Positions 10,650 through 45,395 of a DNA stretch of 64,000 nt are shown here, piece by piece. Made by a program: the position numbers and the translations under genes. The first letter of the stretch is position 1. The number at the start of each line of letters is the position of its first letter. Under the pieces are notes generated by a model. The model searched no databases, was not told the DNA's origin, and saw only the letters and a program-made list of their open reading frames with translations. Origin of the DNA: Acidobacteriota bacterium (lineage in GTDB: Bacteria; Acidobacteriota; Vicinamibacteria; Vicinamibacterales; UBA8438); NCBI GenBank assembly GCA_009861545.1, contig VXME01000076.1, forward strand, positions 75,325 to 139,324, given 5' to 3'.

Positions 10650-11220
10650 GCTTCCGCGTACTCGTCATCCCGGAAGATCCGACTTGGAACGGGTACATCC
10701 TGAAGCCCCTGACCAAGAAGTTGATGGAGAGCGCGGGGAAAACCCAAGGCCAGGATAGAAGTGCTGTCCAAGCCGCACCTCCGCGGCTATGCGGACGCGC
10801 TGCGGGCCATTCGTGAGGAACTTCCCGACGGCTACGGATTTCTTCGACCTCTGGTTGTTCTTTCCTGACGCCGACCGCGCGGGGGAAGACGCAATGGCAC
10901 GCCTGGAGGCTGACATCCAAGCCAGAGGTATCGCGCTGCTCTGCTGTCCCGCAGAGCCGGAGGTCGAGATCTACGTCTGCGTCGGGTTTCAGGACGATCT
11001 GCCGGGCGGTTGGCAGGATGCTCGCAGGCATCCTCGGATGAAGGAGGAAGTCTTCGGGCCGCTGCTGCAGAGGCACGGCGATCCAAGGCGGGCGGGCGGC
11101 GGCAGAGACCAGATGATCGAGAGGTCGCTTCAGAACCTGCAACGGCTGTTTCAGTTGTGTCCCGAGACGCAGCGGCTGCGAGATCGGATCGCGGCGCACG
11201 TCGAGGCGGCTGATGCATAA
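10646..11220 (+). pseudogene. TOPRIM-like (DUF4276-like) partner of the AAA ATPase, disrupted by two +1 frame shifts
   Basis: Sensible protein is only obtained by joining three frames: VSFRVLVIPEDPTWNGYILKPLTKKLMESAGK / KARIEVLSKPHLRGYADALRAIREELPDGYGF / (F)DLWLFFPDADRAGEDAMARLEA...AAHVEAADA. The shifts fall near 10735-10745 (G4A4C3 run) and 10839-10845 (TTTCTTC). The E...DxD pattern (IPED; PDAD) is TOPRIM-like. Confidence 0.6.
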
Positions 11221-11228
11221 TTGCAGCG

Positions 11229-13895: not shown

Positions 13896-13950
13896 GGACG
13901 GGAGCGCCGACCGGGACGGCGTGAAATCGCGCTGCCCCGAGTCGGTCGCC

Positions 13951-15048: not shown

Positions 15049-15086
15049 CGGGGGAGGCGCGTGGAATCGGAGAGAAGAGGCGCGGA

Positions 15087-18000
15087 TCAGGGTGCTGAGA
15101 GTGTGGTTTTCGCCAACTCCAGGAAGCGGCAGAAGGGGTTGGCCAGGCGCATCTGTTCCGGGGTGCGGCAGTCCGGCGTGAGGAGGTCGGGACTGGCGAC
15201 GATGGCCGCCACGCAGCGGGCGCGGGAGGTGGCGACGTTGAGGCGGTGCAGGCTGTAGAGGAACGCCATCCCGCGCGGCGCCTCGTCGGCGGTCGAGGTG
15301 GCCATCGAGTAGATGGCGATCGACGCCTCCTGTCCCTGGAACTTGTCCACGGTGCCGACCCGTGCGCCTTCCGGCAGCGCCGCCCGCAGGGCTGCGACGT
15401 GCGCGTTATAGGGCGCCACGACCAGGATGTCCCGCAGCGTCAGCAGCTTCTGTTCACCTTCCTTGTCGATCCAGGCCGCGCCGGCGGCGAGCAGCTCGCC
15501 GAACAGCGCCGCGACGCGGTCGGCTTCCTCCGTTGAGGCGTTCGTGTTGCCGGCGTGCTCCACCGGTACGAAACGCAGGCCGTGTCCCGCCAGCGGGCCC
15601 GGTCCGACCACCGTCTGCCGAGCCAGCTCCGGGCGCGTGCCGAGCCGGCCCTCGTAGAACTGTTCCGTCGTGAACGCGCAGACTTCGGGGTGCATGCGCC
15701 AGGTGTGCTCGAGGAAGACGCCGCGGGACGGGCCGACGGTTGCCGATTCGCCCAGCAGGTGGCCGAGCGCCGAGACGTCGGCGCCGGGCGGGTGGACGCC
15801 CTGGATCGGCTGATCGAGCTGGCGCGGGTCGCCGAGCAGCACCAAGCTCTGCGCTGCCTGGCAGACGGCGAGGGTGTTGGCGAGGCTCATCTGGCCCGCC
15901 TCGTCGATCACCAGCACGTCCACCGCGTCGGCCATCTCCGGGCGGGACCACAGCCATGCGGTGCCGCCGGCGAGGTTGGCGTCGCCATTGGAGAGCGCCT
16001 CGGCCACTGTTTCGTTCGAGTGGGTCCGGACGATGCGTTCGTCCGGGCAGCCGTCGCCGTCGTTGGCCTTCTGGATCCCCCGGACATCGACAGCCGCGGG
16101 CTCGGCCGCCACGCCGCTTTGCTCGCGCCCGGGCCGCGCTCCTTCGCCGGGGCGCTCGTCCATCGCCCTGCACACGGCGCCGAGCAGGTTGGAGATCACC
16201 TTGTGGCTGTTGGCCGTCACGCCGACCCGCTTTCCGCCGGCCAGCAGGTCGAGGATCATCCGCGCGCCGGTGTAGGTCTTGCCGCTGCCGGGCGGTCCCT
16301 GCACCGGGAGGACGGAGCGGTCCAGCCGCGGGGCGATCCGCCGGACCGCATCCAGCGGTGCTTCTTCGGGAGCGACGAGGTTTTCGAGAGCAACGGCGTC
16401 TTCGGGAGCGGCGCCGTCCTCCAGAGGGAAGAGGCTCAGTGGATTGGCTCGAGGCTTCGCCGTCTCGAGACGCGGCGGCACGCGCCGCAGCAGGTCGAAG
16501 GCAGCACGACGCGCGCTCTCCGCCGCGAACCCGTCGGACGCCATGTCCCGGCCGAGGCGGAGCAGGCTGTCCCGCAACACCTGGCTGTTGACGGCGTCGA
16601 GCGGAACCAGTGCGGTCGGCTGGGGAACGGGCGAGTTGCGCCCGCGCTTCAGATCGATCGTGCGCTCCGCTTCGTCGAGCGCAACCACTGTCCCGCAGAA
16701 ACCCCGCTTGCGCTCGTCGGATTCGGCGGTGTCGGGGTTCTTCGGCGAGTCACCCACCTCGATCTCGTGCGTCTGCTCCGGGAAGCGGTATCGATGGACG
16801 ATCGACTTCTTGACCTGCCCCACCTCGCCCACGTAGCTGAGCGCGCCGAGCGTCGCCCGGCTGGCCACGTGCTCCTCCGCGCTGAAGCCGCAGCGGTCGA
16901 AGAACTCCCACCACATGGACTTCTCCTCGCGCCGGTGGAACTCCAGCAGGTGCGCCAGCAGCCGCCGCCCACGCTGCTCGTCGTCGAGTCCGTCGTCTCC
17001 CTCCGGCAGTCCAGCGGTGAGCGCCTCGAACAGCGCCGCGATCTCCGCCGCCGATTCCCGCTCCTGGTCGCGTTCTTCGTCCCGTACCGCGGGCCGCGGC
17101 ACTGGCTGTCCTGTCAACGCCTCCAGATCGTGCCGGCATCCCGCCAGCCACTCGGCCAGCCGCAGCGTCGACAGGCAGTCGTCGCGGTTGTAGCCCTCTA
17201 TCTCGGCGCGGAGGGCGTTCGCCGTGCCGTGCGCCTCGCCCGACTCCAGCGCCGCCTCGAACCGGACCAGCGCCCGTGTTGCGGTCGTCAGGTCGATCCG
17301 GCGCACGAAGCCGTAGAACGGCTCCAGCTTCTTGATGGAGTACCCCTCGACCGAGGCGCGCAGCCCCTGGCGGACCACCCGGTGCAGGTCGACGAAGACG
17401 CGCCCGCGCAGCAGCCGATCCACCTCTTCCTCGCGGGTGGCGTAGCGGCTCATCAGGCGCTTGACCGCGGTCGTCTCGTAGGCGCCGTAGTGGTAGATGT
17501 GGAAGCCCGGATACTCCCGCCAGCGCGCCGTGACGCGGTCGATGAAACGCTCGAACGCACGCTTCTCGGCCGGTTCGTCGAGCGCCCAGCAGCCGTCGTA
17601 TCTGCCGTGCCGATCCGCGGCCCCGAAGAGGTACTCGAACCCGCCGTTCATTGCGAAGGCATCGCCTTCGAGATCGAAGAAGAGGTCGCCCGGCGAGGTT
17701 TCCGGCAGCGCGGCGAGTCCCTTGTCTTCCTGGACCGGCGTGATCAGCTCGTGCATGCGCCGGCCTTCACGCCGTCCCTGATCCTGGATGCGCGCCTGCT
17801 CCCGGATCCGAAGCAGCGCGTCGTGGCTCACGCCGTCCGGCGGCGGAGACGCCGTCGGGTCGAGCGCCCCGAGACCCGCCATCGTCGTCACGCCCCGGTC
17901 GACCAGCTTGCGCCGCTGCCTGCGCGTGATCCCGGCGACCAGCGACAGGTGATCGTCAGTGCGTCGGCGATCCGCACAGCCCTGCTTCCAGTCGCAGAGC

Positions 18001-18716
18001 GCACAATGGTCGACCGGCTCCGGATAGGTGTCCGGCGGCTCCGCCGCGTGCGCCTCGAAGCGCCGGCGGACGGCGCGGTAGTACGCGGAGTACTCCACGA
18101 CCGGGAAGCTTGCTTCTCGAGGCCCGTCGCTGCCGCCGAGCGCCATGTGCATTCGCTCCGGCGTGGTGCCTTGCACCTGGGCCAGCAGGTCCGAATACAG
18201 CAGAAGCTGGAGCAGCGCCTCGCCCTTTGCGACGCGGGCCAGCTTCGCGTCGAGCACCTCGTACGACCAGCCGCCCAGCGCGCTTGCTTCGTCCACCCGG
18301 AGCAGGAAATCGGGATAGCCGCTCCACTGCCCGTCGTCGTCTTGCAGGCGCCCCTGGTAGACGACGTCGACCCCGCGCCGCATCGTTTCCCGGGTGCGCG
18401 CCGCGGCTTCCTCCGGGTCGCGCTCCGAGAACGGCGACTCGGGTGGCGTGACGATTTCCACGGCGCGGCCTTCTGCCGCGAACCGTTCCAGAAGGCGCCG
18501 TTCGTGCTCGATCCCGCGTTGCTTCAGGACCTCCGCGCGGGGGTCGTCGTACGGCGTCGGCCGCTCGATCTCCCCGAGCGCGGCGGCGCGGCGCAGGCCC
18601 GTCAGGTGGGCACAGGAGAGGTGGCGGCTGAGGTCGGTGGCGGAGAACAGGAGTCGGCCGTCGGCGTGGCGCATCGGGCGGGACGATAGCACGGGTTGTG
18701 ACGGAGGACCGGTCAC
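15087..18716 (-). CDS. RecB/Cas4-like nuclease (TM0106-type) + RNase H-like domain + SF1 (Upf1/Dna2-like) helicase fusion, 1209 aa
   Basis: The N-terminus has LFSATDLSRHLSCAHL plus CALCDWKQGC, a Cas4/AddB-style Cys cluster. FFDLEGD lies in the middle. The C-terminal helicase motifs are GPPGSGKTYT, VLVIDEAGQM, LLGDPRQL, VDKFQGQE and NVATSRAR. GTG start at 18716; alternative ATG at 18674. Confidence 0.85.
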   Translation of the reverse strand: MTGPPSQPVLSSRPMRHADGRLLFSATDLSRHLSCAHLTGLRRAAALGEIERPTPYDDPRAEVLKQRGIEHERRLLERFAAEGRAVEIVTPPESPFSERDPEEAAARTRETMRRGVDVVYQGRLQDDDGQWSGYPDFLLRVDEASALGGWSYEVLDAKLARVAKGEALLQLLLYSDLLAQVQGTTPERMHMALGGSDGPREASFPVVEYSAYYRAVRRRFEAHAAEPPDTYPEPVDHCALCDWKQGCADRRRTDDHLSLVAGITRRQRRKLVDRGVTTMAGLGALDPTASPPPDGVSHDALLRIREQARIQDQGRREGRRMHELITPVQEDKGLAALPETSPGDLFFDLEGDAFAMNGGFEYLFGAADRHGRYDGCWALDEPAEKRAFERFIDRVTARWREYPGFHIYHYGAYETTAVKRLMSRYATREEEVDRLLRGRVFVDLHRVVRQGLRASVEGYSIKKLEPFYGFVRRIDLTTATRALVRFEAALESGEAHGTANALRAEIEGYNRDDCLSTLRLAEWLAGCRHDLEALTGQPVPRPAVRDEERDQERESAAEIAALFEALTAGLPEGDDGLDDEQRGRRLLAHLLEFHRREEKSMWWEFFDRCGFSAEEHVASRATLGALSYVGEVGQVKKSIVHRYRFPEQTHEIEVGDSPKNPDTAESDERKRGFCGTVVALDEAERTIDLKRGRNSPVPQPTALVPLDAVNSQVLRDSLLRLGRDMASDGFAAESARRAAFDLLRRVPPRLETAKPRANPLSLFPLEDGAAPEDAVALENLVAPEEAPLDAVRRIAPRLDRSVLPVQGPPGSGKTYTGARMILDLLAGGKRVGVTANSHKVISNLLGAVCRAMDERPGEGARPGREQSGVAAEPAAVDVRGIQKANDGDGCPDERIVRTHSNETVAEALSNGDANLAGGTAWLWSRPEMADAVDVLVIDEAGQMSLANTLAVCQAAQSLVLLGDPRQLDQPIQGVHPPGADVSALGHLLGESATVGPSRGVFLEHTWRMHPEVCAFTTEQFYEGRLGTRPELARQTVVGPGPLAGHGLRFVPVEHAGNTNASTEEADRVAALFGELLAAGAAWIDKEGEQKLLTLRDILVVAPYNAHVAALRAALPEGARVGTVDKFQGQEASIAIYSMATSTADEAPRGMAFLYSLHRLNVATSRARCVAAIVASPDLLTPDCRTPEQMRLANPFCRFLELAKTTLSAP

Positions 18717-18826
18717 GCGGGCCTCGCGATGGGATCCGGATCGTTAGAGGCCATGTCCGGCGGCGTCTGGTACGATTCCGTCGTGGTGGGAGCTGCGATG
18801 AACCGTGGACCGGACGGCGCGACCGC

Positions 18827-19081
18827 ATGAGCCGAAGCCGGCTGCTTCTACAGCGGATTCTCGCCGGTCGCTCGGATGCGAATCTGCGCTTCGACGACCT
18901 GCGTGTCTTGCTCCGGGAACTTGGATTCATCGAACGCGTGCGGGGAAGCCATCACATATTCAGGAGGGAGGGTGTTACCGAGAGAATCAACTTGCAGCGT
19001 GACAATGGCCAGGCCAAGCCCTATCAGGTGCGGCAGGTGCGTCACGTGATCCTGAAGTACGGGCTGAAGGTGAACGAGTGA
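18827..19081 (+). CDS. hicA: HicA-family mRNA interferase toxin
   Basis: Start ATG 18827. FDDLRVLLRELGFIERVRGSHHIF and a KPYQVRQVRHVI-type C-terminus are typical of HicA (YcfA-like). Overlaps the next gene. Confidence 0.85.
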   Translation: MSRSRLLLQRILAGRSDANLRFDDLRVLLRELGFIERVRGSHHIFRREGVTERINLQRDNGQAKPYQVRQVRHVILKYGLKVNE

Positions 19082-19293
19082 TGTACAAGTACGAGATCAT
19101 TCTCTACTGGAGCAAGGTCGATGGCGTGTTCGTTGCCGAGGTGCCCGAGCTTCCCGGGTGCATGGCGCACGGCGACACGCAGGAAGCCGCTCTCGGTAAT
19201 GTCAACGAGGCGATGGAACTCTGGATCGATACGGCGAGAGAATCAGGTGACCCCATACCGGAGCCCAAGGGTGAACGTCTGATGTTGGCATAG
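19078..19293 (+). CDS. hicB: HicB-family antitoxin (UPF0150 fold, short form)
   Basis: YKYEIILYWSKVDGVFVAEVPELPGCMAHGDTQEAALGNVNEAMELWI. GTG 19078 or ATG 19081 overlaps the hicA stop. Confidence 0.85.
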   Translation: MMYKYEIILYWSKVDGVFVAEVPELPGCMAHGDTQEAALGNVNEAMELWIDTARESGDPIPEPKGERLMLA

Positions 19294-19342
19294 CGAAGAC
19301 GGCCGCCGCTCATCGTGTCGAGCATCCGGGAGGGGGGCTGTC

Positions 19343-20140
19343 GTGAGGGTGGAAGGACTCGCGGCCCGGGTCACGCCCGACTCGTGTCGGGACCCGGTGC
19401 CGGGACCAGATTGGTTCGGTACGTTGGCCGAATGGAGCGTTCTCGATTCGGATGCCGTCTCGGAGTTGCAGGAACGTGGCTTTGCGATCCTTCCCAGCGC
19501 GGTGCCGTCCGGCGAGATGGAACAGTTGGTTGCTGCCTACCACCGGGTGGAGGCTTTGGCGACGGGCGACGACGTCAGTATCGGCAGCACTTCGACGAGG
19601 GTGACCGACTTCGTCAATCGCGGGGCGGAGTTCGGTCGACTGTACGTGTTGCCGCAGCTGCTCGACGCGTGCTGCCGCGTCATCGCAAGACCGTTCAAGC
19701 TCAGCACGCTGCACGCACGGACGCTGCCGCCGGGCGCGGCCGCCCAGGCCCTGCACGTCGACGTAGGGCGACACTCGTCCGAGTGGCCGCTCATGGGCTT
19801 CATCCTGAGGGTCGATGACTTTCGGCCGGACAACGGCGCGACGCGGTTCGTTCCGGGTTCGCATCGGTGGCCACGTGCGCCCCGGGACTCGATGGCCGAT
19901 GTGACGGTAGAACACGACGAGCAGGTATTGGCCTGCGGCTCTGCCGGGTCGCTGGTGGTCTTCAACGGGTCGACGTGGCACGGCCACACGGCCAATGTAT
20001 CGAACGAGCCGCGACGATCGCTCCAGGGCGCGTTCGTTCCCCGGGACGGTCGCGCAGCAACCGACTTCGCGGCCCGCATGCAATCGGAGACGCGCAAACG
20101 GCTTGGCCCGCTCGCGCGGTACGTGCTTGCGCTAGGATGA
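19343..20140 (+). CDS. phytanoyl-CoA dioxygenase (PhyH) family Fe(II)/2-oxoglutarate oxygenase
   Basis: GTG start. HxD in ALHVDVG, GATRFVPGSHRW and the distal His in STWHGHTAN. Confidence 0.8.
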   Translation: MRVEGLAARVTPDSCRDPVPGPDWFGTLAEWSVLDSDAVSELQERGFAILPSAVPSGEMEQLVAAYHRVEALATGDDVSIGSTSTRVTDFVNRGAEFGRLYVLPQLLDACCRVIARPFKLSTLHARTLPPGAAAQALHVDVGRHSSEWPLMGFILRVDDFRPDNGATRFVPGSHRWPRAPRDSMADVTVEHDEQVLACGSAGSLVVFNGSTWHGHTANVSNEPRRSLQGAFVPRDGRAATDFAARMQSETRKRLGPLARYVLALG

Positions 20141-20153
20141 TTGAGGGTCTCTC

Positions 20154-20408
20154 GTGCATCTTGATGACGATTCACTGCTCGCCGAACCGGGCATCCGGCG
20201 AGCGTTCGCCACGGCGCTGTATCGCGACCGCAGCCTGTCGCTCGGACAGGCCGCGCGATTCTCGGAGCTCAGCATCGCCGAGTTCATCCGGCACGTGTCT
20301 CGGCTCGGGATTCCTGTCGTCGGTGGCACTTCGGACACCGTCCGCGAGGACGCCGAGGCGATCATCGAATGGCGGGGCGGCTCGTCGCAGCCGACGCGAG
20401 CCCGTTGA
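20154..20408 (+). CDS. UPF0175 family antitoxin-like protein
   Basis: RRAFATALYRDRSLSLGQAARFSELSIAEFIRHVSRLGIPV is the typical UPF0175 HTH pattern. Confidence 0.75.
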   Translation: MHLDDDSLLAEPGIRRAFATALYRDRSLSLGQAARFSELSIAEFIRHVSRLGIPVVGGTSDTVREDAEAIIEWRGGSSQPTRAR

Positions 20409-20419
20409 TAGGCCCTGTC
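20369..20419 (+). pseudogene. 17-codon remnant of a DUF3368 (PIN-like) toxin gene, fused in frame to the DUF2283 gene
   Basis: MAGRLVAADASPLIG matches the characteristic N-terminus (..vvDasPLIaL..) of the DUF3368 partners of UPF0175. It overlaps the UPF0175 3' end as intact pairs do, and the sequence then switches to DUF2283. Confidence 0.45.
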
Positions 20420-20635
20420 ATGAAGCTGCACTACTACGCCGACACCGATAGTCTTTATGTTGAGTTGAAGTCATCATCAGGGACGGAGACGCGCGAGGTC
20501 GCGAGTGGGTTCAACGTTGACCTCGATGCCAACGGAGAGGTCGTGGGGTTCGACATCGACCATGCCTCCAGGCGCCTCGAGCTCTCGACGCTGGAGACGA
20601 GAGCGCTGCCCATCCAGGTGTACAGGGCCGGGTGA
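20420..20635 (+). CDS. DUF2283 domain protein
   Basis: MKLHYYADTDSLYVELKSSSG...NVDLDANGEVVGFDIDHAS is the canonical DUF2283 pattern. Confidence 0.75.
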   Translation: MKLHYYADTDSLYVELKSSSGTETREVASGFNVDLDANGEVVGFDIDHASRRLELSTLETRALPIQVYRAG

Positions 20636-20689
20636 AGGCGTGTTGACCAAGCGCCCCTGGAGAGTGTGACTCGGACGTCAGGAGACAAG

Positions 20690-21586
20690 ATGGCGATTCC
20701 GGACTACCAGACCATCATGTTGCCTTTGCTTGAAGTGGCTGGGGACAACGAGGTTCATCGGGTTCGGGATGCGGTGGACGATCTTGCCGAGCGCTTCAGG
20801 CTCACCGAGGAGGAGAGGCAACAACTGATGCCTGATGGCCGGCGGGCCAGATTCAAGTACAACGTCGCCTGGTCCCGAACCTACCTGAAGAAGGCTGGTC
20901 TGCTGGAGGATCCTCGGCGCGGAGAATTCCGGATCACCCAACGAGGTCGTAAGGTTCTTGCTGGCAAGCCCGCTAGAATCGACACCAAGCTCCTTCAGAA
21001 GTTCAAGGAGTTCAAGGACTTCATCGGCAAGGACCAGTCGTCAATGCAAGGGGGGACAGACCCCGAGTTGACGCCGGAGGAGGCTATACAGGCTGCTCAC
21101 ACGACGCTGCAAAAGAGTCTTGCAGCAGACCTTCTCGATCAAGTGAAACGGGCGTCTCCTGCCTTCTTTGAGCAGCTTGTAGTAGATGTCCTGGTCCACA
21201 TGGGCTACGGAGGTTCGCGGCAGGAAGCGGGGGAGGCCATCGGGCAGGCGGGAGACGAAGGCATCGACGGCATCATCAAGGAGGACCGTCTGGGTCTGGA
21301 CATCATCTACATTCAAGCCAAGCGTTGGGCGAATACCGTGGGGCGTCCTGAGGTGCAGAGGTTTGCCGGCGCCCTGGCAGGAAAACGAGCACGCAAGGGC
21401 GTCTTCATAACAACGTCCTCGTTCTCCGGCGAGGCGGTAGCCTATGCGGCCAGCATTGAGACCAAGGTAATCCTCATCGCGGGGGCACAGCTCGCGGAGT
21501 TGATGATCGACTATGGGGTCGGCGTCACGACCGAAGCCACGTACGAGCTGAAGCGAATCGATGCGGACTACTTTGCCGATGAATGA
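20690..21586 (+). CDS. mrr: Mrr-type restriction endonuclease (Mrr_N winged helix + Mrr catalytic domain)
   Basis: ATG 20690 follows GGAGA. MAIPDYQTIMLPLLEVAG (Mrr_N) and the catalytic core GDEGIDGII...IYIQAKRW are present. Confidence 0.9.
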   Translation: MAIPDYQTIMLPLLEVAGDNEVHRVRDAVDDLAERFRLTEEERQQLMPDGRRARFKYNVAWSRTYLKKAGLLEDPRRGEFRITQRGRKVLAGKPARIDTKLLQKFKEFKDFIGKDQSSMQGGTDPELTPEEAIQAAHTTLQKSLAADLLDQVKRASPAFFEQLVVDVLVHMGYGGSRQEAGEAIGQAGDEGIDGIIKEDRLGLDIIYIQAKRWANTVGRPEVQRFAGALAGKRARKGVFITTSSFSGEAVAYAASIETKVILIAGAQLAELMIDYGVGVTTEATYELKRIDADYFADE

Positions 21587-21659: not shown

Positions 21660-24600
21660 TCACTCCAGCAGACCGGCCATCGCGGTTGCCGCATCGAGGC
21701 CGCCGTCCGACTCGGAGAGATGCTGCCGCTGCGTGCCGGTGAGCCACTCCACCTGGCTGCCGGTGGCATGGCGTGTCACCGCGAGGACGTGTTCGACCTG
21801 TTCCGCTACCGCGCGGACGTGGGAGATCACGCCCACCATGCGGCCGCCGGCCGCTACGGTGTTCAGCGCTTCGACCGCCGTGTCGAGATTGTTGCGATCC
21901 AGAGAGCCGAATCCCTCGTCCAGGAACAGCGATTCCAGCCGGCCGCCGCTGCGCGCCATCATCTCGACCATGCCGAGCGCGAGCGACAGCGAGGCGATGA
22001 ACTGTTCGCCGCCGGACAGGCTGGCCGGGGATCGGTCCTGGCCGGAATCCGCATCCAGCACGCGCCACTGTTCGTCGGCGTCGCCGGGATCCACGAAAGC
22101 GTACTTGCCGTTGCTCATCTCGCCGAGCATCCGCGACGCGTGAACCAGGAGGCGTCGCGAGCGCCGTAGCGTCAGCCATTTCAGGAAGGCGCCCGGCTTC
22201 AGGGCGTCCTCCAGGTCGCCCAGCGCCCGTTCCCTTCCCAGAACCTCCTGGAGCAGCGTGCGCAGGCGGCGGACGTCGTCGATGATCGCTGCGAAGTGCT
22301 CTGCCGACTCCCTGGCGCGGCGCTCGGCGAAGCGGGCGTCGTCGGCCCGCGCGCGTGCGGCGGCCACGACCGCCTCGATATCGCGGACGTCGATCTCGGC
22401 GCCCAGCCGTTCGGCGAGGGCGGCGAGCGCCTCGCGGGCGGCGGCGGCCTTGTCGGAAGCGGCCCGTGAATGCTCGTCGGCGGAGCGGGCCGTCCCCGCG
22501 GCCTGCCTGCCGATCTCGCCGATATGCGACTCCAGCGCCGCCGCGTTTCTCGCCGAGACGGCCGCGGGGACGTTCGTGTCGAGGCCCAGCCGGCTGACCG
22601 ACTCGACGAGGAGGTCGCGGTGGGCATGGAGGTCCGCGACCAGCGCGTCGATGGGCGCGTCAACGTCGTTCGCCCGCCGGGTCGCCAGCGTCGAGCGGGC
22701 TTCTCGAACGCCGTCGAGCTCATGTCGCAGGCGGTCCTGCTCGCGCTTTCGCGCCCCCAGGACCTGGGCGCGCTGCTGTGCCGACCCGGTCCGCTCGCCG
22801 ACTGGGCCCAGATCCACTTCGTGCAGATCCGCAACGTCGGCAGGCAGATCCAGGCCGGGCCGGAACGGCTGCGGAATGGTCCGTATCGTCGCAAGTAGTC
22901 TCTCCAGGGCTTTCTCACCGGTTCGCCGGGTACGCTCGACCAGCGCTCTCGCGTTGGAGGCGGCCTCCTGAGCCACGCCCGCGGCCTTGTCCTGCCGGGT
23001 AGCGTTCTCCCGCAAGTCCTCGCCGACGCGATCGTGCTCGGCCAGGCGCTCGGCGGTCTCCTTGCGCGTTGCCTCCAGAGGGGCGATCAAGGCGTCCCGC
23101 GTGGGAAGCGGTGCGGCGGTGTCGAGTTCGACTTCCCGCGCCAACTCCTGCAGAGCGTTCCGGAATCGAGTCCCGGACGCGGTGCGTCTGGCCTCGGTGT
23201 CGGCCATCTGGCGTTGGATACCTTTTCGCTCGGCGTCGAGTGACGTTGCCCGGCCGGCTGCTTTTCTCGCGGCATCGTGCGCCGCCTTGGCGACCTGCCG
23301 GGCCTCGGTGAGTCTCATGCCGTCGGGCGCCTCCCAGTCGGCGGTGAGACGGCGGCGGCAGATCGGACAGGCGTCGCCCGGGTGCAGATCGTGCGCCGCG
23401 GCCGCCGCCGATTCCGCACGCTGCGCGACGGCCAGATGCTCGTCGGCGCTTGCGGCCTCCAGCGTCGCGCGGCGCTCCGACTCCCGTGCCGATTCCAGCC
23501 CTCGCCCGCAATCGGCTTCCTCCGTCCGGAGTACATCTGCCTGCTTGCGGACGTGGTCCAGCTCGGCGGCAAGCTCGGCGCAGCGAGCGTGTTTTTGCTC
23601 GACGGAGGCCCGGCGCTCGTTCGCCGTCCGCGCGGCCTCGTCCAGAGGCGGGCGTTTGGCGGCGTGTTCCTCGTCCTGCTTCTCCGCGTCCGCAGCGCTC
23701 TCGGCCGCGTGCTGTGCCTCGGTCTGCGTCTTCGCCGCGTCCTCCACGCTGGCGCGGAGCGTGGCGGCGGCTTCCTCACCGGCCTTCGCGAGGGAGGGCA
23801 GGCCTTGCAGCGTTGTCAGGGCCGCCGTGACCGCTTCGCTTGTCGGGCCGTCGTCGGCCGGGATGCGAGCCAGTGCGTCCTCCAGGTGCGCCTGACGCTC
23901 CTTCAGTGCCGCGTCTTCCGCGGCGAGCTGTCGTTCGATGGCAGCGATGGGCGCCAGCCGGCCGGCGGCCTGCTCGGTATCCAGAGCGCGCAGCCGCTCG
24001 GCGACGTCGGAGGCCGTTTGCCGCGCCTTGTCCGCCGCCAATACGGCCTCGCGGCCGGCGGATGCCGCCTGCTCGTCGTCGGATGCCGCCGCCGCCAGCC
24101 GTCGGGCCGTCTCCGCGGTCTCCTGGAGGTGCTTCAGATGAGATGCAGGATCTTCCGGATACCCCGACGCGGCCTGCTCCAGTTGAATCCGCAGCGTCTC
24201 GGTCTCCCGCCGCGCCTTGCCGGCCAGCTCTCCGGCCTCCTCCAGCTCGTCGGTGCGCCATACCTGCCGCAGTATTCGGCTCCGGTCGCGCGGCTCGTCC
24301 TCCACCAGCAGGCGCGCGAAACGGCCTTGTGGGAGGACGACGGTGCGCAGGAAGGCATCGCTGTCGAGTCCCAGGAGTTCCTCGATGCGCTCGTTGACGC
24401 GCCGGACCTGCTCGACCTGCTCGACCGTCGCGTCGTCGTCGCCGACTCGCCGAAGCAGTGCCCGTACCTGGCCGACGTCGCCCTGGCCGCCGCGTCGCAG
24501 CGTACGGGTCACCTCCCAGGTCTCGCCGGATACCCGGAACCGCAGCACGACCCGCAGGTGGACCGACGTGTCGTTCATCAGCTCCTGGTTGGCGCGCGCC

Positions 24601-24800
24601 GTGAATGTCGTTTGCCCGTACAGCGCGTAAGTGATCGCCTCCAGGATCGAGGACTTGCCCGCCCCGGTGTCGCCGACGATGGCGATGTGGTCGCGGCCGG
24701 TGAAATCGATGGTCGGCCTGCGGGGGGTGGTGCCGCCGTCCTGCGCGGGCGGTGTCCGGAACGACCGCAGCCCTTCGATGGTGAGCTGGAGGGGGCGCAT
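21660..24800 (-). CDS. sbcC: SbcC/Rad50-like SMC ATPase
   Basis: Walker A GDTGAGKSS, a long coiled coil with zinc hook CPICRR, signature LSGGEQF and Walker B LFLDEGFGSLD. Confidence 0.9.
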   Translation of the reverse strand: MRPLQLTIEGLRSFRTPPAQDGGTTPRRPTIDFTGRDHIAIVGDTGAGKSSILEAITYALYGQTTFTARANQELMNDTSVHLRVVLRFRVSGETWEVTRTLRRGGQGDVGQVRALLRRVGDDDATVEQVEQVRRVNERIEELLGLDSDAFLRTVVLPQGRFARLLVEDEPRDRSRILRQVWRTDELEEAGELAGKARRETETLRIQLEQAASGYPEDPASHLKHLQETAETARRLAAAASDDEQAASAGREAVLAADKARQTASDVAERLRALDTEQAAGRLAPIAAIERQLAAEDAALKERQAHLEDALARIPADDGPTSEAVTAALTTLQGLPSLAKAGEEAAATLRASVEDAAKTQTEAQHAAESAADAEKQDEEHAAKRPPLDEAARTANERRASVEQKHARCAELAAELDHVRKQADVLRTEEADCGRGLESARESERRATLEAASADEHLAVAQRAESAAAAAHDLHPGDACPICRRRLTADWEAPDGMRLTEARQVAKAAHDAARKAAGRATSLDAERKGIQRQMADTEARRTASGTRFRNALQELAREVELDTAAPLPTRDALIAPLEATRKETAERLAEHDRVGEDLRENATRQDKAAGVAQEAASNARALVERTRRTGEKALERLLATIRTIPQPFRPGLDLPADVADLHEVDLGPVGERTGSAQQRAQVLGARKREQDRLRHELDGVREARSTLATRRANDVDAPIDALVADLHAHRDLLVESVSRLGLDTNVPAAVSARNAAALESHIGEIGRQAAGTARSADEHSRAASDKAAAAREALAALAERLGAEIDVRDIEAVVAAARARADDARFAERRARESAEHFAAIIDDVRRLRTLLQEVLGRERALGDLEDALKPGAFLKWLTLRRSRRLLVHASRMLGEMSNGKYAFVDPGDADEQWRVLDADSGQDRSPASLSGGEQFIASLSLALGMVEMMARSGGRLESLFLDEGFGSLDRNNLDTAVEALNTVAAGGRMVGVISHVRAVAEQVEHVLAVTRHATGSQVEWLTGTQRQHLSESDGGLDAATAMAGLLE

Positions 24801-24801
24801 C

Positions 24802-26058
24802 TCAGGCGCCCCTTCCGTCCCGTTTGGACGCGAGGGCGTGCAGCGTCTCCTGCGCGTTCAGCTTGAGGGGGGTGAGTCCGAAGTCGGCCGCCGCCGCCTG
24901 GCCGGCGCTGCCCAGGGCCTGCGCGAAGAGCGCGCCGACCGCTTCGTGGGGCGCCTTGATCCCGCGCGCCGCGGTGGTGCGCCACTCCGTGAACAACTCG
25001 TCGAGCGCCGGTTCCGCGTCGCCCTCGCCGGCGGTGTCTATCGGCTTCACCGGCTGGTTCGTGATGGTGTTGATCAGCTCGAACACCGTGCACCGCGGCG
25101 ACCATTCGGCCAGCCGGTCCGCGAGGTCGGGGATGGGATCGTCGGAGACCACCCGCGCCTTCAGTATGCAGCCGTCGAGCCCACCGTTCGCGGCGCGGGT
25201 CTCGAGGTCCGCCAGCGTGCCGGCGAACTCGGTGAGAGGCCGCCCGCCCGGCAGGTCGTGCGTGTTCACCTCGACGCCGTCCCCGATGTTCACCAGCACC
25301 GCGTGCTTTGCCTGCCTGCGCTCACCGAAGTCCAGGGGGATGAGTGAGCCCGCGTAGCGTCCCTGCGCCGTGCCGCCCGGCAGGAGCTGCGGGTCGTGGA
25401 TGTGGCCGAAGGCGCAGTACAGCGCGCGCTGGAGTCCCTCGACGTGCGTGGCGTAGTCCTCGCCGACCGTGATCCGCCGCTCCGACTTGCCCGGCCGGGC
25501 GCCCTGCACGTGCAGGTGCGCGGCGTAGAGGACGATGCCGCGGGCGCCCGCTTCCCGGTGCGCTTCGTCGAGCAGGCGCTGGTTCAACGTCTTGACGCCG
25601 TCCGCGTAGTTGCCCTCGAAGCGCGCCGGATCGTCCGTCGCGAACTGCGCGATCGCACTCGGCTGAATGAACGGCACGCAGACCACGGCTACCGGGGCGT
25701 CCGAGATCGCTGGAAACGGCAGCACCTGCGGCGTGGCCACCAGCCACAGCCGGCGCGGGGTAGCGGCCCCGGCGAGGTCGTCGATCACGCGGAACAGCAT
25801 CGACGAGTCGTGGTTGCCAGCGATCACGACCGTAGGCGCCAGCTCTGCCAGCCGTCTCAAGGCGCGCACGCCGAGCCGTAGCGCCTCGTACGGCGGCCGG
25901 GACGCGTCGAAGAGGTCGCCCGTATGCAGGATCAGGTCGGGCCGCGCCGACTTGGCGATGTCCAGCAGTCCGCGGAGAGCCTCTTCATGATCCGGCGCGC
26001 GGTCGTGCCGGCCGAGCTTCGCTCCCAGGTGCCAGTCGGAGGTGTGGAGCAGCTTCAC
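24802..26058 (-). CDS. sbcD: SbcD/Mre11-like nuclease
   Basis: GTG start at 26058 inside ORF 24802..27189. Phosphoesterase motifs DWHLG, GDLFD, GNHD, AHLH and GHIHD are present. The stop lies 1 nt before the sbcC ATG. Confidence 0.9.
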   Translation of the reverse strand: MKLLHTSDWHLGAKLGRHDRAPDHEEALRGLLDIAKSARPDLILHTGDLFDASRPPYEALRLGVRALRRLAELAPTVVIAGNHDSSMLFRVIDDLAGAATPRRLWLVATPQVLPFPAISDAPVAVVCVPFIQPSAIAQFATDDPARFEGNYADGVKTLNQRLLDEAHREAGARGIVLYAAHLHVQGARPGKSERRITVGEDYATHVEGLQRALYCAFGHIHDPQLLPGGTAQGRYAGSLIPLDFGERRQAKHAVLVNIGDGVEVNTHDLPGGRPLTEFAGTLADLETRAANGGLDGCILKARVVSDDPIPDLADRLAEWSPRCTVFELINTITNQPVKPIDTAGEGDAEPALDELFTEWRTTAARGIKAPHEAVGALFAQALGSAGQAAAADFGLTPLKLNAQETLHALASKRDGRGA

Positions 26059-27911
26059 AGGTCGACCTCGGGTCCGGCCAGGGCGCCCATGGTGCTCAGG
26101 ATCCGGTCGGTCTTCCGCTTGTCCGCGGCCTCGTCCGCCGCCGCCTCGTCCGGATTGGTCGCGAACGGCGGGAACGGGAAGCGGATGGGGATCGGCTCGG
26201 GCACGATCGGCTGGGAGACGACCATCGTGCCCGGCATGAAGCGGGTCGCGCGGTCCCGCAGCGCCGGCGTCAGGAAGCGGTAGGCGTCGGACTCGCTGGC
26301 GTCGAGCCGCCCGGCCACCTTGAGCGAGGCGTTGCGCGGCAGCGCCTGCGCCACCGCGGAGGCGGCCTGCTGCGCGCCGATGAGCAGGACGCCGAGCGAG
26401 CGGCCGCGCTCGGCGATGTCCACCAGCAGGTCCTTCAGCGGCGAGAAGCCGTGCGCGGGCGCGTACTTGTTCAACTCGTCGAGCACGACGAAGCGCAGCG
26501 GGGTGCGGCCCGTCCCCTGCTTCTCCCGCCAGACGCGGTCGAGCAGAGCGCCGACCACGAAACGCTGGGCGTCGTCGTGCAGCGTGGAGATGTCGACCAC
26601 GTGCAGCTTGGCGTTCTCGGCGGAGACCGGCTCGAGGCCGCAGCCGATCAGCGGACCGATGTGGCGCCGCAGCTTCAGCAGCCGCCGCAGGAACGCCTGC
26701 CGCGTTCCGGACTGCGCCCGGCCGAACCACTCGTTCATCAGGCCTTCGTCGTCCGTGGACACCACCTCCTCGAGCAAGTCGATGAGATCGCCGAAATCGC
26801 GCATTACGTGCCCGGCGCCGGCCGATGCCTCGTCCGGCTCGCGTTCGGCCAGCCGGTCCGGGTTGAAGCCGGTGTTGGGAGGCACGATCTCGGCGATCAC
26901 CACGGCGCCGGTCGGGTCTCCCGCCAGCCGCCGCAGGCGTCGCAGGAGCTGGATGCGGACCTGCTGCTCCACGAAGCCCACCTGGGTCGAGCGCTCGTCG
27001 TCGGCGGTGAAGCAGAACTGCAGGAGCTGCTCGCGGATGAACTGCTCCGGGGTCCAGCCGTAGGCGTTCACGTCGGCGGTCCGGCGGGTCTTCACGTCGG
27101 CGACGTTGGTCTGCACGCCGGCCCGGCGCGGCGCGTAGAGCCGGACGGAGCGGAACGGCCCCGGATCGTCGATGCCGAGCGCGCGCCATTTCTCGATCGC
27201 CTCCGCCTTGCCCGCGAACTCGGCGTTCGGGCGGTCGACGTGCAGCAGATCCTCCCCCTTCGTGTTGAAGACCAGCGCACGCACGCTCTCGCGTCCGGCC
27301 CGGCCGCCCAGCAGATCCATGCCCTGCTCGGTTTCCAGGAGCTGGTAGAGGAGGAACAGCGCATAGGAGGTCTTGGTGGCGACGCCCGAGATGCCGGAGA
27401 TCGAGACGTGGCCGCCGGATCGGCCGTCGACGAAGCGCATGTCCGCGTAGACCGGCGCGCCGCCCAGGTCCAGGCCGACCGGCAGCTTGCCGCGTGTCAT
27501 CTCGTCCTCGAACAGGGCGGCCGTGCGGTGCTCTCCGACAGCCCGTGTCGCGGCGGCCCCGGCGTGCGGCGCGACGAACAGCTCGGGAACCACCCGCAGG
27601 ACGCGGACCTCGGCCCGCCGGACGTGCTCCGCCGGCAGCGTCCGGTCGACTACCCGGCCGGTGTCCGATGGCAGGTCGGCGCCCTCGAAGCGGGATCGCA
27701 GCTCGGTGACGATGCCGTAGTGTGTCACCTGCCTGCCGCCGGGCAGGTCGGTCGCGACGGCGACCAGCTCGTCGAGCTGGATCAACACGTCCGGGTCGAG
27801 CACCACGTGGAAGGTGCGCGAGTCGCTCTCGACCGATCCGTCGACCAGTCCTATGCGTCCATCGTCGTGCGGCGGACCGTCCGCCGGCGGCGGCATGCTC
27901 ATTCGCTTCAT
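26055..27911 (-). CDS. herA: HerA-like (DUF87/FtsK-HerA superfamily) hexameric ATPase
   Basis: ATG 27911 overlaps the nurA stop (ATGA). Has an N-terminal HAS-barrel-like FHVVLDPDVLIQLDELVAV, the P-loop SGISGVATKTS, Walker B RFVVLDELNKYAP and LLIGAQQ. The stop overlaps the sbcD GTG (GTGA). Confidence 0.8.
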   Translation of the reverse strand: MKRMSMPPPADGPPHDDGRIGLVDGSVESDSRTFHVVLDPDVLIQLDELVAVATDLPGGRQVTHYGIVTELRSRFEGADLPSDTGRVVDRTLPAEHVRRAEVRVLRVVPELFVAPHAGAAATRAVGEHRTAALFEDEMTRGKLPVGLDLGGAPVYADMRFVDGRSGGHVSISGISGVATKTSYALFLLYQLLETEQGMDLLGGRAGRESVRALVFNTKGEDLLHVDRPNAEFAGKAEAIEKWRALGIDDPGPFRSVRLYAPRRAGVQTNVADVKTRRTADVNAYGWTPEQFIREQLLQFCFTADDERSTQVGFVEQQVRIQLLRRLRRLAGDPTGAVVIAEIVPPNTGFNPDRLAEREPDEASAGAGHVMRDFGDLIDLLEEVVSTDDEGLMNEWFGRAQSGTRQAFLRRLLKLRRHIGPLIGCGLEPVSAENAKLHVVDISTLHDDAQRFVVGALLDRVWREKQGTGRTPLRFVVLDELNKYAPAHGFSPLKDLLVDIAERGRSLGVLLIGAQQAASAVAQALPRNASLKVAGRLDASESDAYRFLTPALRDRATRFMPGTMVVSQPIVPEPIPIRFPFPPFATNPDEAAADEAADKRKTDRILSTMGALAGPEVDL

Positions 27912-28891
27912 CCCTCGCGGTTGCGTTGCAGAACGGCCTCTCGTACGGCTCGAAGGGCCAGACGCGGGTCGCCCTGTAGATGGTGCAGGTGCCGTTCCAG
28001 ACCGGCTATCGGGGTCAGGTTGACCGGGGCCCGCGCGTCCCGGTGGAGTGCCGACGCGAAGTCCGGCAGCCAGCCCGCGGCCCGGTCCGCGGCCTCTACC
28101 GCGGCGGCCAGACCGATCCCGGCCGGCATCTCGATGCGGGCGATGCCTGCCCACGGGCCCGCCCACGGCCCGGGGTCGCCTACCCGCAGGTAGCAGCCGT
28201 ACAGCTCGTCACCCATCGCGAAGAGGCCCGAACGTCCGCGCACGGCGAGGCTCGGCACCCGGGTCCAGTGTTCGTGCGCAAGCATACGGCGATGATGCGT
28301 CTTGACGTAGCCGACTACAGGCAGGCCGCGCCGATGGCGGATGCCGTGGAGCGGGCCGTCGAGCACGGTCAGCCAGCCATCGGCGCAGAGCTGTTCGGCG
28401 ATGTCTGACTCGGCGTCGCGCATCAGCCGCTGGAGCTGCTGCCGGGCGGCTTCGATGTCGGCGCCGTCGACCGCGTACGGCTCCCACCGCCAGCCGTCCC
28501 GGTGGTCGGGCAGGTGGCCGGCGTTTCCGCCCGTGAAGATGGCCGTGCGTCCGATGCTCACCCGATCGAAGCGGGCCGGTGCGTAGGCGGTGACGAGCAC
28601 CGCGCCGGCGGCCCAGCTTCCCGCGAGACCCGTGTTCGCGTCGCCCGCGGCGCTGGTGTGGGTCAGGCGCGCCTCGGTGCGCATCGTGCCGTCCACGAAC
28701 GCGAGGCGGTGCGGGCGCTCCCCTGCGGGCGGGCGGTGTGCCTCGAACGCCCCGGCGTCCTCCACGAGCTCGCACTCGACGGCGTGCGGCGAGTCGTCGT
28801 CCGCCCGAAACCCGGCGCCGTAGGCGGCATCGAAGGCCTCGACGCCGAGCTTGCCGTTCCTATGTGCAGCGTCCGCCTGGTGCTCCGGCAT
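27908..28891 (-). CDS. nurA: NurA-like nuclease
   Basis: Acidic motifs LAFVDGT and TVLDGPL sit where the NurA metal ligands lie. Size (327 aa) and position immediately upstream of herA, with translational coupling, also fit. Called by motifs and context only. Confidence 0.6.
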   Translation of the reverse strand: MPEHQADAAHRNGKLGVEAFDAAYGAGFRADDDSPHAVECELVEDAGAFEAHRPPAGERPHRLAFVDGTMRTEARLTHTSAAGDANTGLAGSWAAGAVLVTAYAPARFDRVSIGRTAIFTGGNAGHLPDHRDGWRWEPYAVDGADIEAARQQLQRLMRDAESDIAEQLCADGWLTVLDGPLHGIRHRRGLPVVGYVKTHHRRMLAHEHWTRVPSLAVRGRSGLFAMGDELYGCYLRVGDPGPWAGPWAGIARIEMPAGIGLAAAVEAADRAAGWLPDFASALHRDARAPVNLTPIAGLERHLHHLQGDPRLALRAVREAVLQRNREG

Positions 28892-29001
28892 CGGAGATCT
28901 CTATTTCGGCGCAGCCTCTCTCGGAACTGTGAGCGTACGCCGACAGCGGTGACGGATCCTGACAGCGAGGTTGGGCGCCCTCGACTTGACTCGTGCTCCC
29001 A

Positions 29002-30096
29002 TCACCTCGGCTTCAGTATCTCGAAGAGCCTGGTCCGCTTCTTCTGCACGGCGCAATCGAGCGGCGTCCGTCCGTTCGCATCCTGCGCGCCGACGTCGGC
29101 GCCGGCGTCGACGAGGCTCTCGACGTAGTCGGCGCGCACGCCCCGCAGGGCGGCGAAGTGCAGGGCGGTCTTGCCGGTTCGATCCGCGGTGTTGACGTCG
29201 ACGCCGCGCGCAATCAGCCAGCGGCTGGCGCCGGGGCGCCTGAAGTACATCAGGTCCATGAGCGGCGTGCGGCCGTTGAAGACCTGCTCCCAGTCGGCGC
29301 CATACCGGTCGAGCAGCGCGCACGCACGCTCGTCCCCCTGATAGGTGACGGCGAACACGGCCGGGTTCGGATCGGCACCACGTTCGAGCAGGAACGCGGC
29401 CAGCGCAAGGTGCTGCTGCCATGCCAGGGCGTGCCACAGCGGCGTGGCTCGAAAGACCTCGTCGCCGTCCACGATCTCCTCGGCGGCGTCCAGGTCGGCC
29501 CCGGCGTCCAGCAGCAACGCCGCGCACAGCAACGCGCGGTCGCTGCCGTGCAGCTTCCACAGCCCCGACAGCGCGACGTAGTGCAACGGCGTTCTGCCAC
29601 GCGGATCGACCTCCCGCGCGCGATCCGGGTTGCGCAACGCTCGGACGAGGCGACCGTTGTCGAGCAGGCTGGCGGCCAGGTGGACGCTGATTCTGGCGCC
29701 GCCGCTCCGCAGCAGATCGATGAAATCCTGGGCCGGCGCCATGGCGGCGTACGCCAGCGGCTCGAAGTGGTGGGGACCGGCGCGCAGGTTCGGATCGGCG
29801 CCGCCCTCGAGCAACGCGACGAGCGCCTTCCGGTGGCCGTCATGCCTGGGAATGGTCGCGTGGTGCTCGGTGAGCCGGGTGAGCGGTGTATGGCGCGCGC
29901 CTGTGCCGGAGATGACATTCGGGTTGGCGCCGGCGGCAATCAGGGCCCGCACCATGTCGGCGCGACCGGCGTGGGCCGCGTCGACGATGGGCTTCCAGTG
30001 GCCGAGGCCGTCCGGATGGCGCTCGATGGCGGTTTCGAGGGCCGTCAGGTCGCCGGCCGCGATGGCGTTGCACTGGTTCTTGTAGCCCCTTGTCAT
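29002..30096 (-). CDS. cytoplasmic ankyrin-repeat protein (no signal peptide)
   Basis: Start ATG 30096 (MTRGYKNQCNAIAAGDL). Several ANK units (TPLHYVA, TALHFAALRG..). Lies 110 bp upstream of nurA on the same strand. Confidence 0.85.
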   Translation of the reverse strand: MTRGYKNQCNAIAAGDLTALETAIERHPDGLGHWKPIVDAAHAGRADMVRALIAAGANPNVISGTGARHTPLTRLTEHHATIPRHDGHRKALVALLEGGADPNLRAGPHHFEPLAYAAMAPAQDFIDLLRSGGARISVHLAASLLDNGRLVRALRNPDRAREVDPRGRTPLHYVALSGLWKLHGSDRALLCAALLLDAGADLDAAEEIVDGDEVFRATPLWHALAWQQHLALAAFLLERGADPNPAVFAVTYQGDERACALLDRYGADWEQVFNGRTPLMDLMYFRRPGASRWLIARGVDVNTADRTGKTALHFAALRGVRADYVESLVDAGADVGAQDANGRTPLDCAVQKKRTRLFEILKPR

Positions 30097-30300
30097 GTTT
30101 GTCAACCTTCCCTGCCACGGTTGCATGCCGGGAAGAGGGTACCGCCGCGCGGCAGGCGTGGGCGACCCGGCGGTCCCGACGAGCCACCGGAACACGCTGA
30201 GTGCACCCCTCGTGCGGCGCGTCAAGCCGTTGCACTGCACGATTCGTGAGTCCCGTCGATGGGGCCTTGAAGGAGAAGAAAAGTATGGCCATAATGCAGT

Positions 30301-30585
30301 ATGGTCACCACTACCATCAAGACAACGTACTCGCTGGACGTCGAGTCCGTGCGAGCGCTCGAGGAGTTGGCCGGCCGCTGGGGAGTCTCGAAGTCGGAAG
30401 CGCTCCGGCGGGCCATCCGGAGCGAAGCCGGTCGACAACCCGCCAGAGGCGGGGATGCGCTGGCGGCGCTCGACCAGCTTCAGGCGTCGCTGCGCTCACG
30501 CAACATCGATCTCGATCAGTGGGCGCGGGAGGTGGAGTCCGAGCGGCAGGCCGCGGGCCGGCGGCTCGGCTCGGAAACGCGATGA
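30301..30585 (+). CDS. ribbon-helix-helix antitoxin (VapB/CopG-like)
   Basis: TTYSLDVESVRALEELAGRWGVSKSEALRRAIR is an RHH pattern. The stop overlaps the next ATG (ATGA). Confidence 0.7.
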   Translation: MVTTTIKTTYSLDVESVRALEELAGRWGVSKSEALRRAIRSEAGRQPARGGDALAALDQLQASLRSRNIDLDQWAREVESERQAAGRRLGSETR

Positions 30586-30812
30586 TTCATCTGGATACGA
30601 GCTTTCTCGTTCGCGCGCTGATTCCGGGGACGCCGGAAGAGACGAAGCTGCGGAACGTGGCCGCGCGCCTGTTCAACGAGTCGGGGCGGCGTCGCGGGAC
30701 GATCATCGATTGCATGATCGGGGCGGCCGCTCTCGCCGACGGCGCCAGCGTCGCGACATCGAACGTAGCCCACTTCAGCCGATTCGCTGCTGCCGGCCTG
30801 AAGCTGGCGTAG
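30582..30812 (+). pseudogene. PIN-domain VapC-like toxin with apparent internal in-frame deletion (76 aa)
   Basis: The N-terminal MIHLDTSFLVRAL and the C-terminal IIDCMIGAAALADGASVATSNVAHFSRF are both present. However, the two conserved Asp lie only ~38 aa apart (about 90 expected) and the middle acidic motif is missing. The junction is near 30656. Confidence 0.55.
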
Positions 30813-37467: not shown

Positions 37468-37572
37468 CGGCGAGAGTCGCGTTCAGAGACGTCGGGCGGC
37501 GTGGCGCAACGATAGGAGATGGCTCCTGCCCGGTGACATAATCGGCCAGAACTCGAACCCGGAGGAGGCGTC

Positions 37573-45152: not shown

Positions 45153-45395
45153 GAACGCGTCGTTCCCGTGAAGGCGATGCGTCAATTCGGACGGGTTCAG
45201 CGATTTGCACCATCGCGGGGCGTGACCATCGGCCCCACGTGAGTGCACGGATGGATCGCATGCCGCGGCGGCGCCCGGGACACCGCTCGGTTCACGCCGG
45301 TGAGCCGCCTGTGGTGTTTGGTACGTGCTATGGTGCCTTCAACGGAATCGACGCATTTGTCACGGCCGCAGGCCTGCGGTCGAAGGGAGTCCACG

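Follow-up and report, generated by a model that had tools for sequence, protein, structure and literature searches.

A widespread bacterial nurA-herA-sbcD-sbcC operon with a putative role in DNA double-strand-end processing

Introduction

The archaea Sulfolobus and Pyrococcus carry a herA-mre11-rad50-nurA operon (Constantinesco 2004, as cited in PMC9960219), and the presumed division of labour is that Mre11 and Rad50 act at the DNA ends and HerA-NurA performs the long resection. Here, we describe a bacterial operon in which the same four functional classes come together, nurA-herA-sbcD-sbcC. It lies in a stretch of 64,000 nucleotides, the window hereafter, from a soil Acidobacteriota bacterium of the order Vicinamibacterales (assembly GCA_009861545.1, contig VXME01000076.1, positions 75,325 to 139,324). 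The operon is one of hundreds alike across bacterial phyla and, judging from homology, probably encodes a dedicated machine for processing DNA double-strand ends.

The best characterized bacterial relative is the HerA-NurA complex of Deinococcus radiodurans (7F6D, 7WRW and 7WRX), for which an end-resection activity and DNA-damage phenotypes have been published (PMC9960219). Its genes also form a nurA-then-herA operon, and its HerA, over the full length, and its NurA are homologous with ours. However, the Deinococcus nurA-herA stands alone, whereas here it is coupled to a dedicated sbcD-sbcC.

Such a coupling has been described in Oceanithermus profundus, where sbcD and sbcC lie downstream of nurA-hepA, and was read as an architecture and function like those of archaeal double-strand break repair, SbcCD having been recruited secondarily (Blesa et al. 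2017, PMC5448004). By its published description, the nurA-hepA-sbcD-sbcC arrangement is that of the window. It comes from one Thermales genus, whereas in the present loci it prevails across many mesophilic soil phyla. The initial annotation of the window had held that bacterial HerA/NurA pairs are described apart from SbcCD; both the Oceanithermus case and the spread of the operon contradict this. A 2026 paper regards the bacterial herA-nurA as a Deinococcus-Thermus feature acquired from archaea (PMC12977600).

HerA-superfamily ATPases are paired with nucleases also in the SIR2-HerA (Nezha) and DUF4297-HerA systems, but the partner here is NurA, with no SIR2 or DUF4297. Our search of the literature on NurA/HerA with anti-phage or Actinobacteria found no survey of bacterial four-gene clusters. 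The FtsK-HerA comparative genomics of Iyer and colleagues in 2004 is said to note HerA-NurA neighbourhoods in some bacteria, so an earlier description may exist there.

Results

The operon consists of four translationally coupled genes on the minus strand, spanning 21660-28891 of the window. In the order of transcription they are:

27908-28891, minus: nurA, NurA-family nuclease, 327 aa, the first gene of the operon
26055-27911, minus: herA, Deinococcus-type HerA hexameric ATPase/translocase of the FtsK-HerA superfamily, 618 aa
24802-26058, minus: sbcD, Mre11-family nuclease, 418 aa, GTG start, overlapping the herA stop
21660-24800, minus: sbcC, Rad50/SMC-family ATPase, 1046 aa, starting 1 nt after the sbcD stop

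The nurA/herA junction is a 4-nt ATGA overlap (27911-27908), the herA/sbcD junction a GTGA overlap (26058-26055) and the sbcD/sbcC junction reads TGAgATG with a 1-nt spacer (24804-24798). All three read exactly as in the initial annotation, and identical gene overlaps appear in the independent gene calls of two relatives (L001 and L083; L numbers denote related loci). The four-gene arrangement recurs in hundreds of loci, so chance is not an issue. The GC content is about 70% for the window, 0.71 for the operon, the same as the genome, and 0.62-0.66 for the flank with mrr and toxin-antitoxin (TA) genes.

The identities of HerA and NurA were settled by a sequence search against the PDB. With phmmer, HerA residues 19-590 align with residues 14-601 of the D. 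radiodurans HerA chain 7f6d_B (E=1e-108), which makes the homology full length and takes in both the HAS barrel at the N terminus and the RecA-like core. The Walker A (GISGVATKTS) and Walker B (VVLDELNKYAP) motifs are identical to those of the Deinococcus protein, and K180, D478 and E479 are invariant in an alignment of 28 family sequences (A1). Over 5,800 database relatives of this HerA exist. It has no Pfam match at E<=0.01 and no match to an NCBIfam HerA model, which we attribute, in view of the 7F6D match, to incomplete coverage by the profiles. By the same homology, HerA would form a hexameric ring, translocate double-stranded DNA with ATP and bind a NurA dimer.

NurA matches the D. radiodurans NurA chain 7f6d_H with its residues 61-319 (E=2e-18), while its first 60 or so residues do not align, in a difference from the Deinococcus protein. 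The profile check proposed in the initial annotation was passed, though marginally, with 23.5 bits for Pfam PF09376 against a cutoff of 21 (E=4.5e-5). The AFVDGT and VLDGPL motifs are present, AFVDGT aligning with VVDGK and LDGP with QDGP of the Deinococcus NurA. The Asp residues of these motifs are taken as catalytic in an RNase-H-like fold.

SbcD scores 137 bits with NCBIfam TIGR00619 (cutoff 77.65) and 2e-15 with Pfam Metallophos, and has the phosphoesterase motifs DWHLG, GDLFD, GNHD and GHIHD. SbcC passes the cutoffs of Pfam AAA_23 (64 bits) and SbcC_Walker_B (35 bits). It has a split ABC-type ATPase head, the halves of which flank a long coiled coil that bears a CxxC zinc hook, and the motifs Walker A GDTGAGKSS, zinc hook CPICRR, signature LSGGEQF, Walker B LFLDEGFG and H-loop VISHV. 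Every motif quoted for the four proteins in the initial annotation was thus found in the translations. The best family model for SbcC, TIGR00618, gives 192.5 bits, below its cutoff of 478.5, and all the equivalog models are far below theirs, so the protein is a divergent SbcC-like paralogue.

Compared with the canonical SbcCD of E. coli, Bacillus and Staphylococcus, the pair shares the passed SbcD model, the full SbcC motif set and the near-abutting sbcD-sbcC. It differs in the low SbcC score (192 versus 478 bits), in being always embedded with herA and nurA and in a coiled-coil length that varies among close relatives, SbcC having 1046 aa in the window and about 1230 aa in L003 and L006. In these two relatives HerA is 92-94% identical to that of the window but SbcC only about 55%. 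The segment for the coiled coil (about 22300-24145) has no nucleotide match in them, while the head-encoding ends match at 77-84%. The coiled-coil arms thus appear hypervariable or recombined. A search for a second sbcCD within the 64-kb window found none.

The profile scores indicate that HerA, SbcD and SbcC are of the bacterial type and archaeal only in their clustering; NurA, a homologue of the Deinococcus protein, is not of the archaeal type either. The family profile from A1 scores 739 bits on 7f6d (E=4e-221) but 23 bits on the Sulfolobus HerA 4D2I (2e-4). It gives 24-40 bits (1e-4 to 1e-7) on the other HerA-family chains 8xau, 8ziq and 9c1m, which we take to be of defence systems. SbcD reaches at most 52 bits with the archaeal Mre11 models, against 137 with the bacterial one, and SbcC scores far better on the bacterial models than on the archaeal Rad50 models. 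The order nurA-herA-sbcD-sbcC (N-H-D-C) also differs from the archaeal one. Hence, the label 'archaeal-style' given in the initial annotation holds for the gathering of the four functions but not for their order or sequences. Its 'horizontally acquired resection machine' likewise stands in the resection half, which fits the evidence, whereas a recent transfer from archaea is not indicated because the operon GC equals that of the host genome.

Among known defence systems, PADLOC matched the operon proteins to mad8 (1e-14) and mad3 (1.5e-19), and to HerA models at 5e-4 and 2e-3. The MADS detection model needs mad6, mad7, mad8 and an N6-methyltransferase (MADS preprint). An identity with MADS was rejected, as the operon has no methyltransferase, mad6 or mad7 and only the similarity to the mad8- and mad3-like ATPases. 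The mad8, mad3 and LmuB matches were all set aside as generic similarity of ATPase heads.

A genome scan with the HerA profile gave at least 596 relatives, of which 81 loci were analysed, 59 of them with full flanks. By tblastn with the window proteins, the N-H-D-C order on one strand is kept in 55 of the 59; the exceptions are three loci with nurA-herA only and one without a detectable sbcC. By clustering of open reading frames (ORFs), nurA immediately precedes herA in 63 of the 81 loci, and by tblastn in nearly all 81. The carriers are labelled as Acidobacteriota, Gemmatimonadota, Latescibacterota, Actinomycetota (mainly Acidimicrobiia), Myxococcota, Chloroflexota and Eremiobacterota/Vulcanimicrobiota. 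Matches on plasmids add Streptomyces and Nostocales cyanobacteria, to a total of about eight phyla.

The closest relatives among the matches listed are metagenome-assembled genomes (MAGs) of Vicinamibacterales with a HerA identity of 90-96%, and one of them (L002) matches about 20 kb of the window with 88-92% nucleotide identity. Other Vicinamibacterales (L002, L003 and L005-L007) carry the cluster at the same place in the chromosome. Most Actinomycetota HerA proteins are only 42-56% identical (L022-L081). The family is rare on mobile elements, with HerA relatives in 6 of 72,556 plasmid records and no full-length relative in the phage records. In the annotated plasmid records L169 and L170, the product name is 'ATP-binding protein' or 'hypothetical protein' for HerA and 'hypothetical protein' for NurA.

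A second architecture was found in L084 and L086, where an ankyrin gene is followed by herA2 (560-563 aa), sbcD2 (386-392 aa), sbcC2 (1035 aa) and nurA2 (306 aa). These type-2 proteins are distant from the type-1 proteins of the window, with identities of 41-43% for HerA, 27% for SbcD, 32-38% for the SbcC heads and 34% for NurA. In metagenomes, a profile of HerA2 detected at least 583 relatives, and 80 loci (L089-L168) were analysed, 20 with full flanks. The H-D-C-N order, which the type-2 clusters have in common with the archaeal operon, is found in 19 of these 20. In a neighbour-joining tree of 164 HerA proteins, the nurA-last loci form a single clade of 74 leaves without any nurA-first member, so the gene order is clade-specific.

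No fifth family is co-conserved with either type or found repeatedly outside single lineages, the most frequent one by ORF clustering reaching 15 of the 81 type-1 and 10 of the 80 type-2 loci. The neighbour survey took in the recurrent ORFs that form clusters. For type 1 these are aconitase, thiolase, CoA-transferase, sorbosone dehydrogenase, MFS transporters, response regulators, nucleoside hydrolase and an ABC ATPase. The recurrent type-2 neighbours are likewise non-defence genes, and across both types the neighbours are metabolic or regulatory, RibD_C and enoyl-CoA hydratase included.

One further nuclease was considered as a general fifth component and rejected. It is a 1209-aa protein encoded at 15087-18716 on the minus strand, with a TM0106-family RecB-like nuclease (TIGR03491, 267 bits), RNase_H_2 and an SF1 helicase (AAA_11/AAA_12). 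In L001, L003 and L007 its gene comes right after sbcC, in the same orientation. L002 retains only a remnant, and a relative of 53% identity lies upstream of the type-2 cluster in L092. Being adjacent only in some Vicinamibacterales loci and one type-2 contig, it may be a lineage-specific fifth partner.

The initial annotation also noted an ankyrin gene 110 bp upstream of the operon, a convergent mrr at its 3′ end and TA genes on both sides. All of these were confirmed, as follows:

29002-30096, minus: ankyrin-repeat gene, 364 aa
20666-21586, plus: mrr, Type IV restriction enzyme, convergent with sbcC (PADLOC mREase_IV, 2e-84)
18698-19293: HicA/HicB, HicAB toxin-antitoxin
30301-30585, plus: VapB, ribbon-helix-helix (RHH) antitoxin, in the upstream flank of the ankyrin gene
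30582-30812, plus: PIN remnant, 76 aa, after vapB

Conservation of the operon does not extend to the ankyrin gene. This gene lies on the strand of nurA and stops 110 nt before the nurA start; the gap has no minus-strand terminator-like site and no match to the sigma-70 promoter consensus, which may not fit Acidobacteria, and the two genes may be co-transcribed in this strain. In L005 and L006, the sequence of window 30262-30667 abuts nurA directly, which marks the ankyrin gene as an insertion. None of 80 genome and 80 metagenome loci has an ankyrin homologue within about 8-10 kb of herA, or a homologue of Mrr, PhyH or Big/LVIVD near it. The gene was found upstream of a cluster only in the closest relatives of the window (L082-L086, 75-96% identity), and in L084 and L085 a vapBC pair comes between the two.

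The ankyrin family itself is coherent, with proteins of 361-367 aa. Four genomes (L088, L171, L172 and L173) have orthologues of 60-71% identity, flanked by a ferritin-like gene and fur and with no cluster nearby, which suggests an iron or oxidative-stress role for the family. In this slot of a Dps-like ferritin, the ankyrin gene and a convergent fur, the next genes are birA and pantothenate kinase in L088, L171 and L172, with EF-Tu in L171 and L172, and Ku, or Ku with LigD, is found just upstream in two of the four loci. Two further ankyrin-repeat ORFs lie in the window at 1324-3180 (minus) and 11214-12848 (plus), with tblastn E values of 1e-8 to 1e-11, so ankyrin genes are common in this genome.

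The other flank genes are also strain-variable. An islet of low GC (0.62-0.66) at 18698-21586, from the helicase gene to sbcC, holds HicA/HicB, a PhyH-family dioxygenase, DUF2283 and Mrr, and is absent or partial in the sister genomes L001, L002 and L003. L003 has hicB and the helicase gene but no PhyH, DUF2283 or mrr. L002 is without 15.3-21.6 kb of the window (helicase, hicAB, PhyH, DUF2283 and mrr) and also without 28.9-35.1 kb (the ankyrin gene, vapB/C, Big_1/LVIVD and others). The flanks thus vary between strains, and the ankyrin gene, mrr, hicAB and vapB/C that they hold are neighbours of the machine and not parts of it.

Farther upstream, the homology to L083 ends inside the PIN gene at window 30660, a sign of local rearrangement; L082 and L083 carry full-length PIN toxins of 123-129 aa. 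Two paralogues of about 600 aa at 37537-39342 and 45243-47096, both on the plus strand, share 65-70% nucleotide identity with each other. The relatives L007 and L083-L085 have several copies of the matching PQQ beta-propeller genes upstream of the cluster.

Discussion

The nurA-herA-sbcD-sbcC operon probably serves as a dedicated DNA double-strand-end processing machine, a reading founded on the strict co-conservation of the four genes and on their homology with the systems of D. radiodurans and archaea. In the proposed mechanism, an SbcC2-SbcD2 complex of the zinc-hook Rad50/Mre11 type would recognize DNA ends, hairpins or protein-blocked ends, tether them and open them endo- or exonucleolytically. 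The HerA hexamer would then thread the duplex through its central channel, using ATP, and pass it to a NurA dimer docked at the HAS-barrel face. NurA would degrade one or both strands to leave recombinogenic 3′ tails. The tight translational coupling, with the 4-nt overlaps and the 1-nt spacer, would keep the four subunits co-expressed. By analogy with the characterized systems, we infer that SbcCD cooperates physically with HerA-NurA and that the operon serves repair and not defence.

Several observations weigh against a role in repair and fit an accessory nuclease against phages or plasmids, made of the four genes without the ankyrin and existing in two exchangeable architectures, that would destroy incoming linear or unprotected DNA ends, much as RecBCD and SbcCD act in restricting phages. 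The contigs L084 (type 2) and L085 (type 1) share 7,956 bp at 99.06% identity and are unrelated from there on, the breakpoint lying at L084 8613 and L085 7955, about 65 bp past an upstream PIN gene. In L086, the type-2 cluster (9408-16360) sits between the same ankyrin (79% nucleotide identity) and Mrr (77%) flanks as the type-1 cluster of the window. One architecture has thus been replaced by the other in situ. A cassette exchange of this kind is commoner in accessory or defence loci than in core repair genes, and it is the one feature that hints at accessory behaviour. The flanks of this strain hold a Type IV restriction enzyme and the HicAB and VapBC modules. Between MAGs assigned to different phyla, the identity of HerA reaches 75-81%, which suggests horizontal transfer. 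The Vicinamibacterales HerA shares 72-81% identity with that of MAGs labelled as Spirochaetia, Latescibacterota, Pseudomonadales and Euzebyaceae (L012 and L014-L019), a sign of either a cross-phylum operon transfer or unreliable MAG labels. On the Streptomyces linear plasmid NZ_CP134205.1 (L169), an H-D-C-N cluster lies beside genes for TIGR02680, TIGR02678, DUF2397 and an ImmA/IrrE peptidase, the first three of which we take to be Wadjet-like (JetC/B/A). HerA ATPases serve the SIR2-HerA and DUF4297-HerA systems. According to a 2026 study of Thermococcus kodakarensis, the archaeal HerA-NurA degrades both strands, which casts doubt on resection, and may have an antiviral function (PMC12977600). 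Nevertheless, the recurrent neighbours over 160 loci are metabolic and not defence genes, the composition is native and the chromosomal position is kept within the order. The family is nearly absent from plasmids and phages, the PADLOC HerA models match at 5e-4 or weaker without a SIR2 or DUF4297 partner, and the nearest characterized homologue has DNA-repair phenotypes. Altogether, a defence nuclease is an unlikely explanation. Its wider form is a little more doubtful, namely that both architectures are interchangeable accessory cassettes, recombined at a fixed slot, spread between phyla and selected for destroying invading linear DNA besides or instead of repair. If true, it would mean a large unrecognized family of HerA-based defence machines made of 'repair' parts.

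The operon might also serve some other transaction of chromosomal DNA, such as the handling of hairpins or stalled forks, of incoming DNA in transformation or conjugation, or a segregation-linked resolution, HerA being related to FtsK. SbcCD is classically a nuclease of hairpins and palindromes. Thermus HepA mutants are affected in DNA mobilization and UV resistance (PMC5448004), and the doubt on resection in T. kodakarensis counts here as well, but the loci examined show no link to competence, conjugation or division genes and the D. radiodurans data favour a role in recombination or repair (PMC9960219, PMC12977600), so we consider such a transaction quite improbable. By far the least probable is the five-gene defence module of the initial annotation, with the cytosolic ankyrin protein as a sensor or adaptor for NurA-HerA-SbcCD. 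The short same-strand gap without a terminator-like site speaks for it, as do the adjacency in the closest relatives L082 and L083, or in L085 across the TA pair, and the ankyrin gene that precedes the type-2 clusters of L084 and L086 too. Yet the ankyrin gene is missing from the 160 other loci of both types and from sister Vicinamibacterales, is inserted when compared with L005 and L006 and goes with the whole 28.9-35.1 kb block in L002. It is parted from the cluster by vapBC in L084 and L085, has its orthologues in the ferritin-fur slot of four genomes and is one of several ankyrin-repeat genes in the window. We have abandoned this module; the striking ankyrin, restriction and TA neighbours proved local and strain-variable.

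In summary, the end-processing reading of the four-gene operon places it in a family where the bacterial-type HerA-NurA is nearly always wired to its own SbcD-SbcC, in two clade-specific orders. The operon is widespread in bacteria yet under-annotated, as pipelines leave its genes unnamed, seen here in two plasmid records. The cassette swap would be a natural experiment on the functional equivalence of the two architectures. The operon thus offers a bacterial setting for asking if Mre11/Rad50 and HerA/NurA act as one machine.

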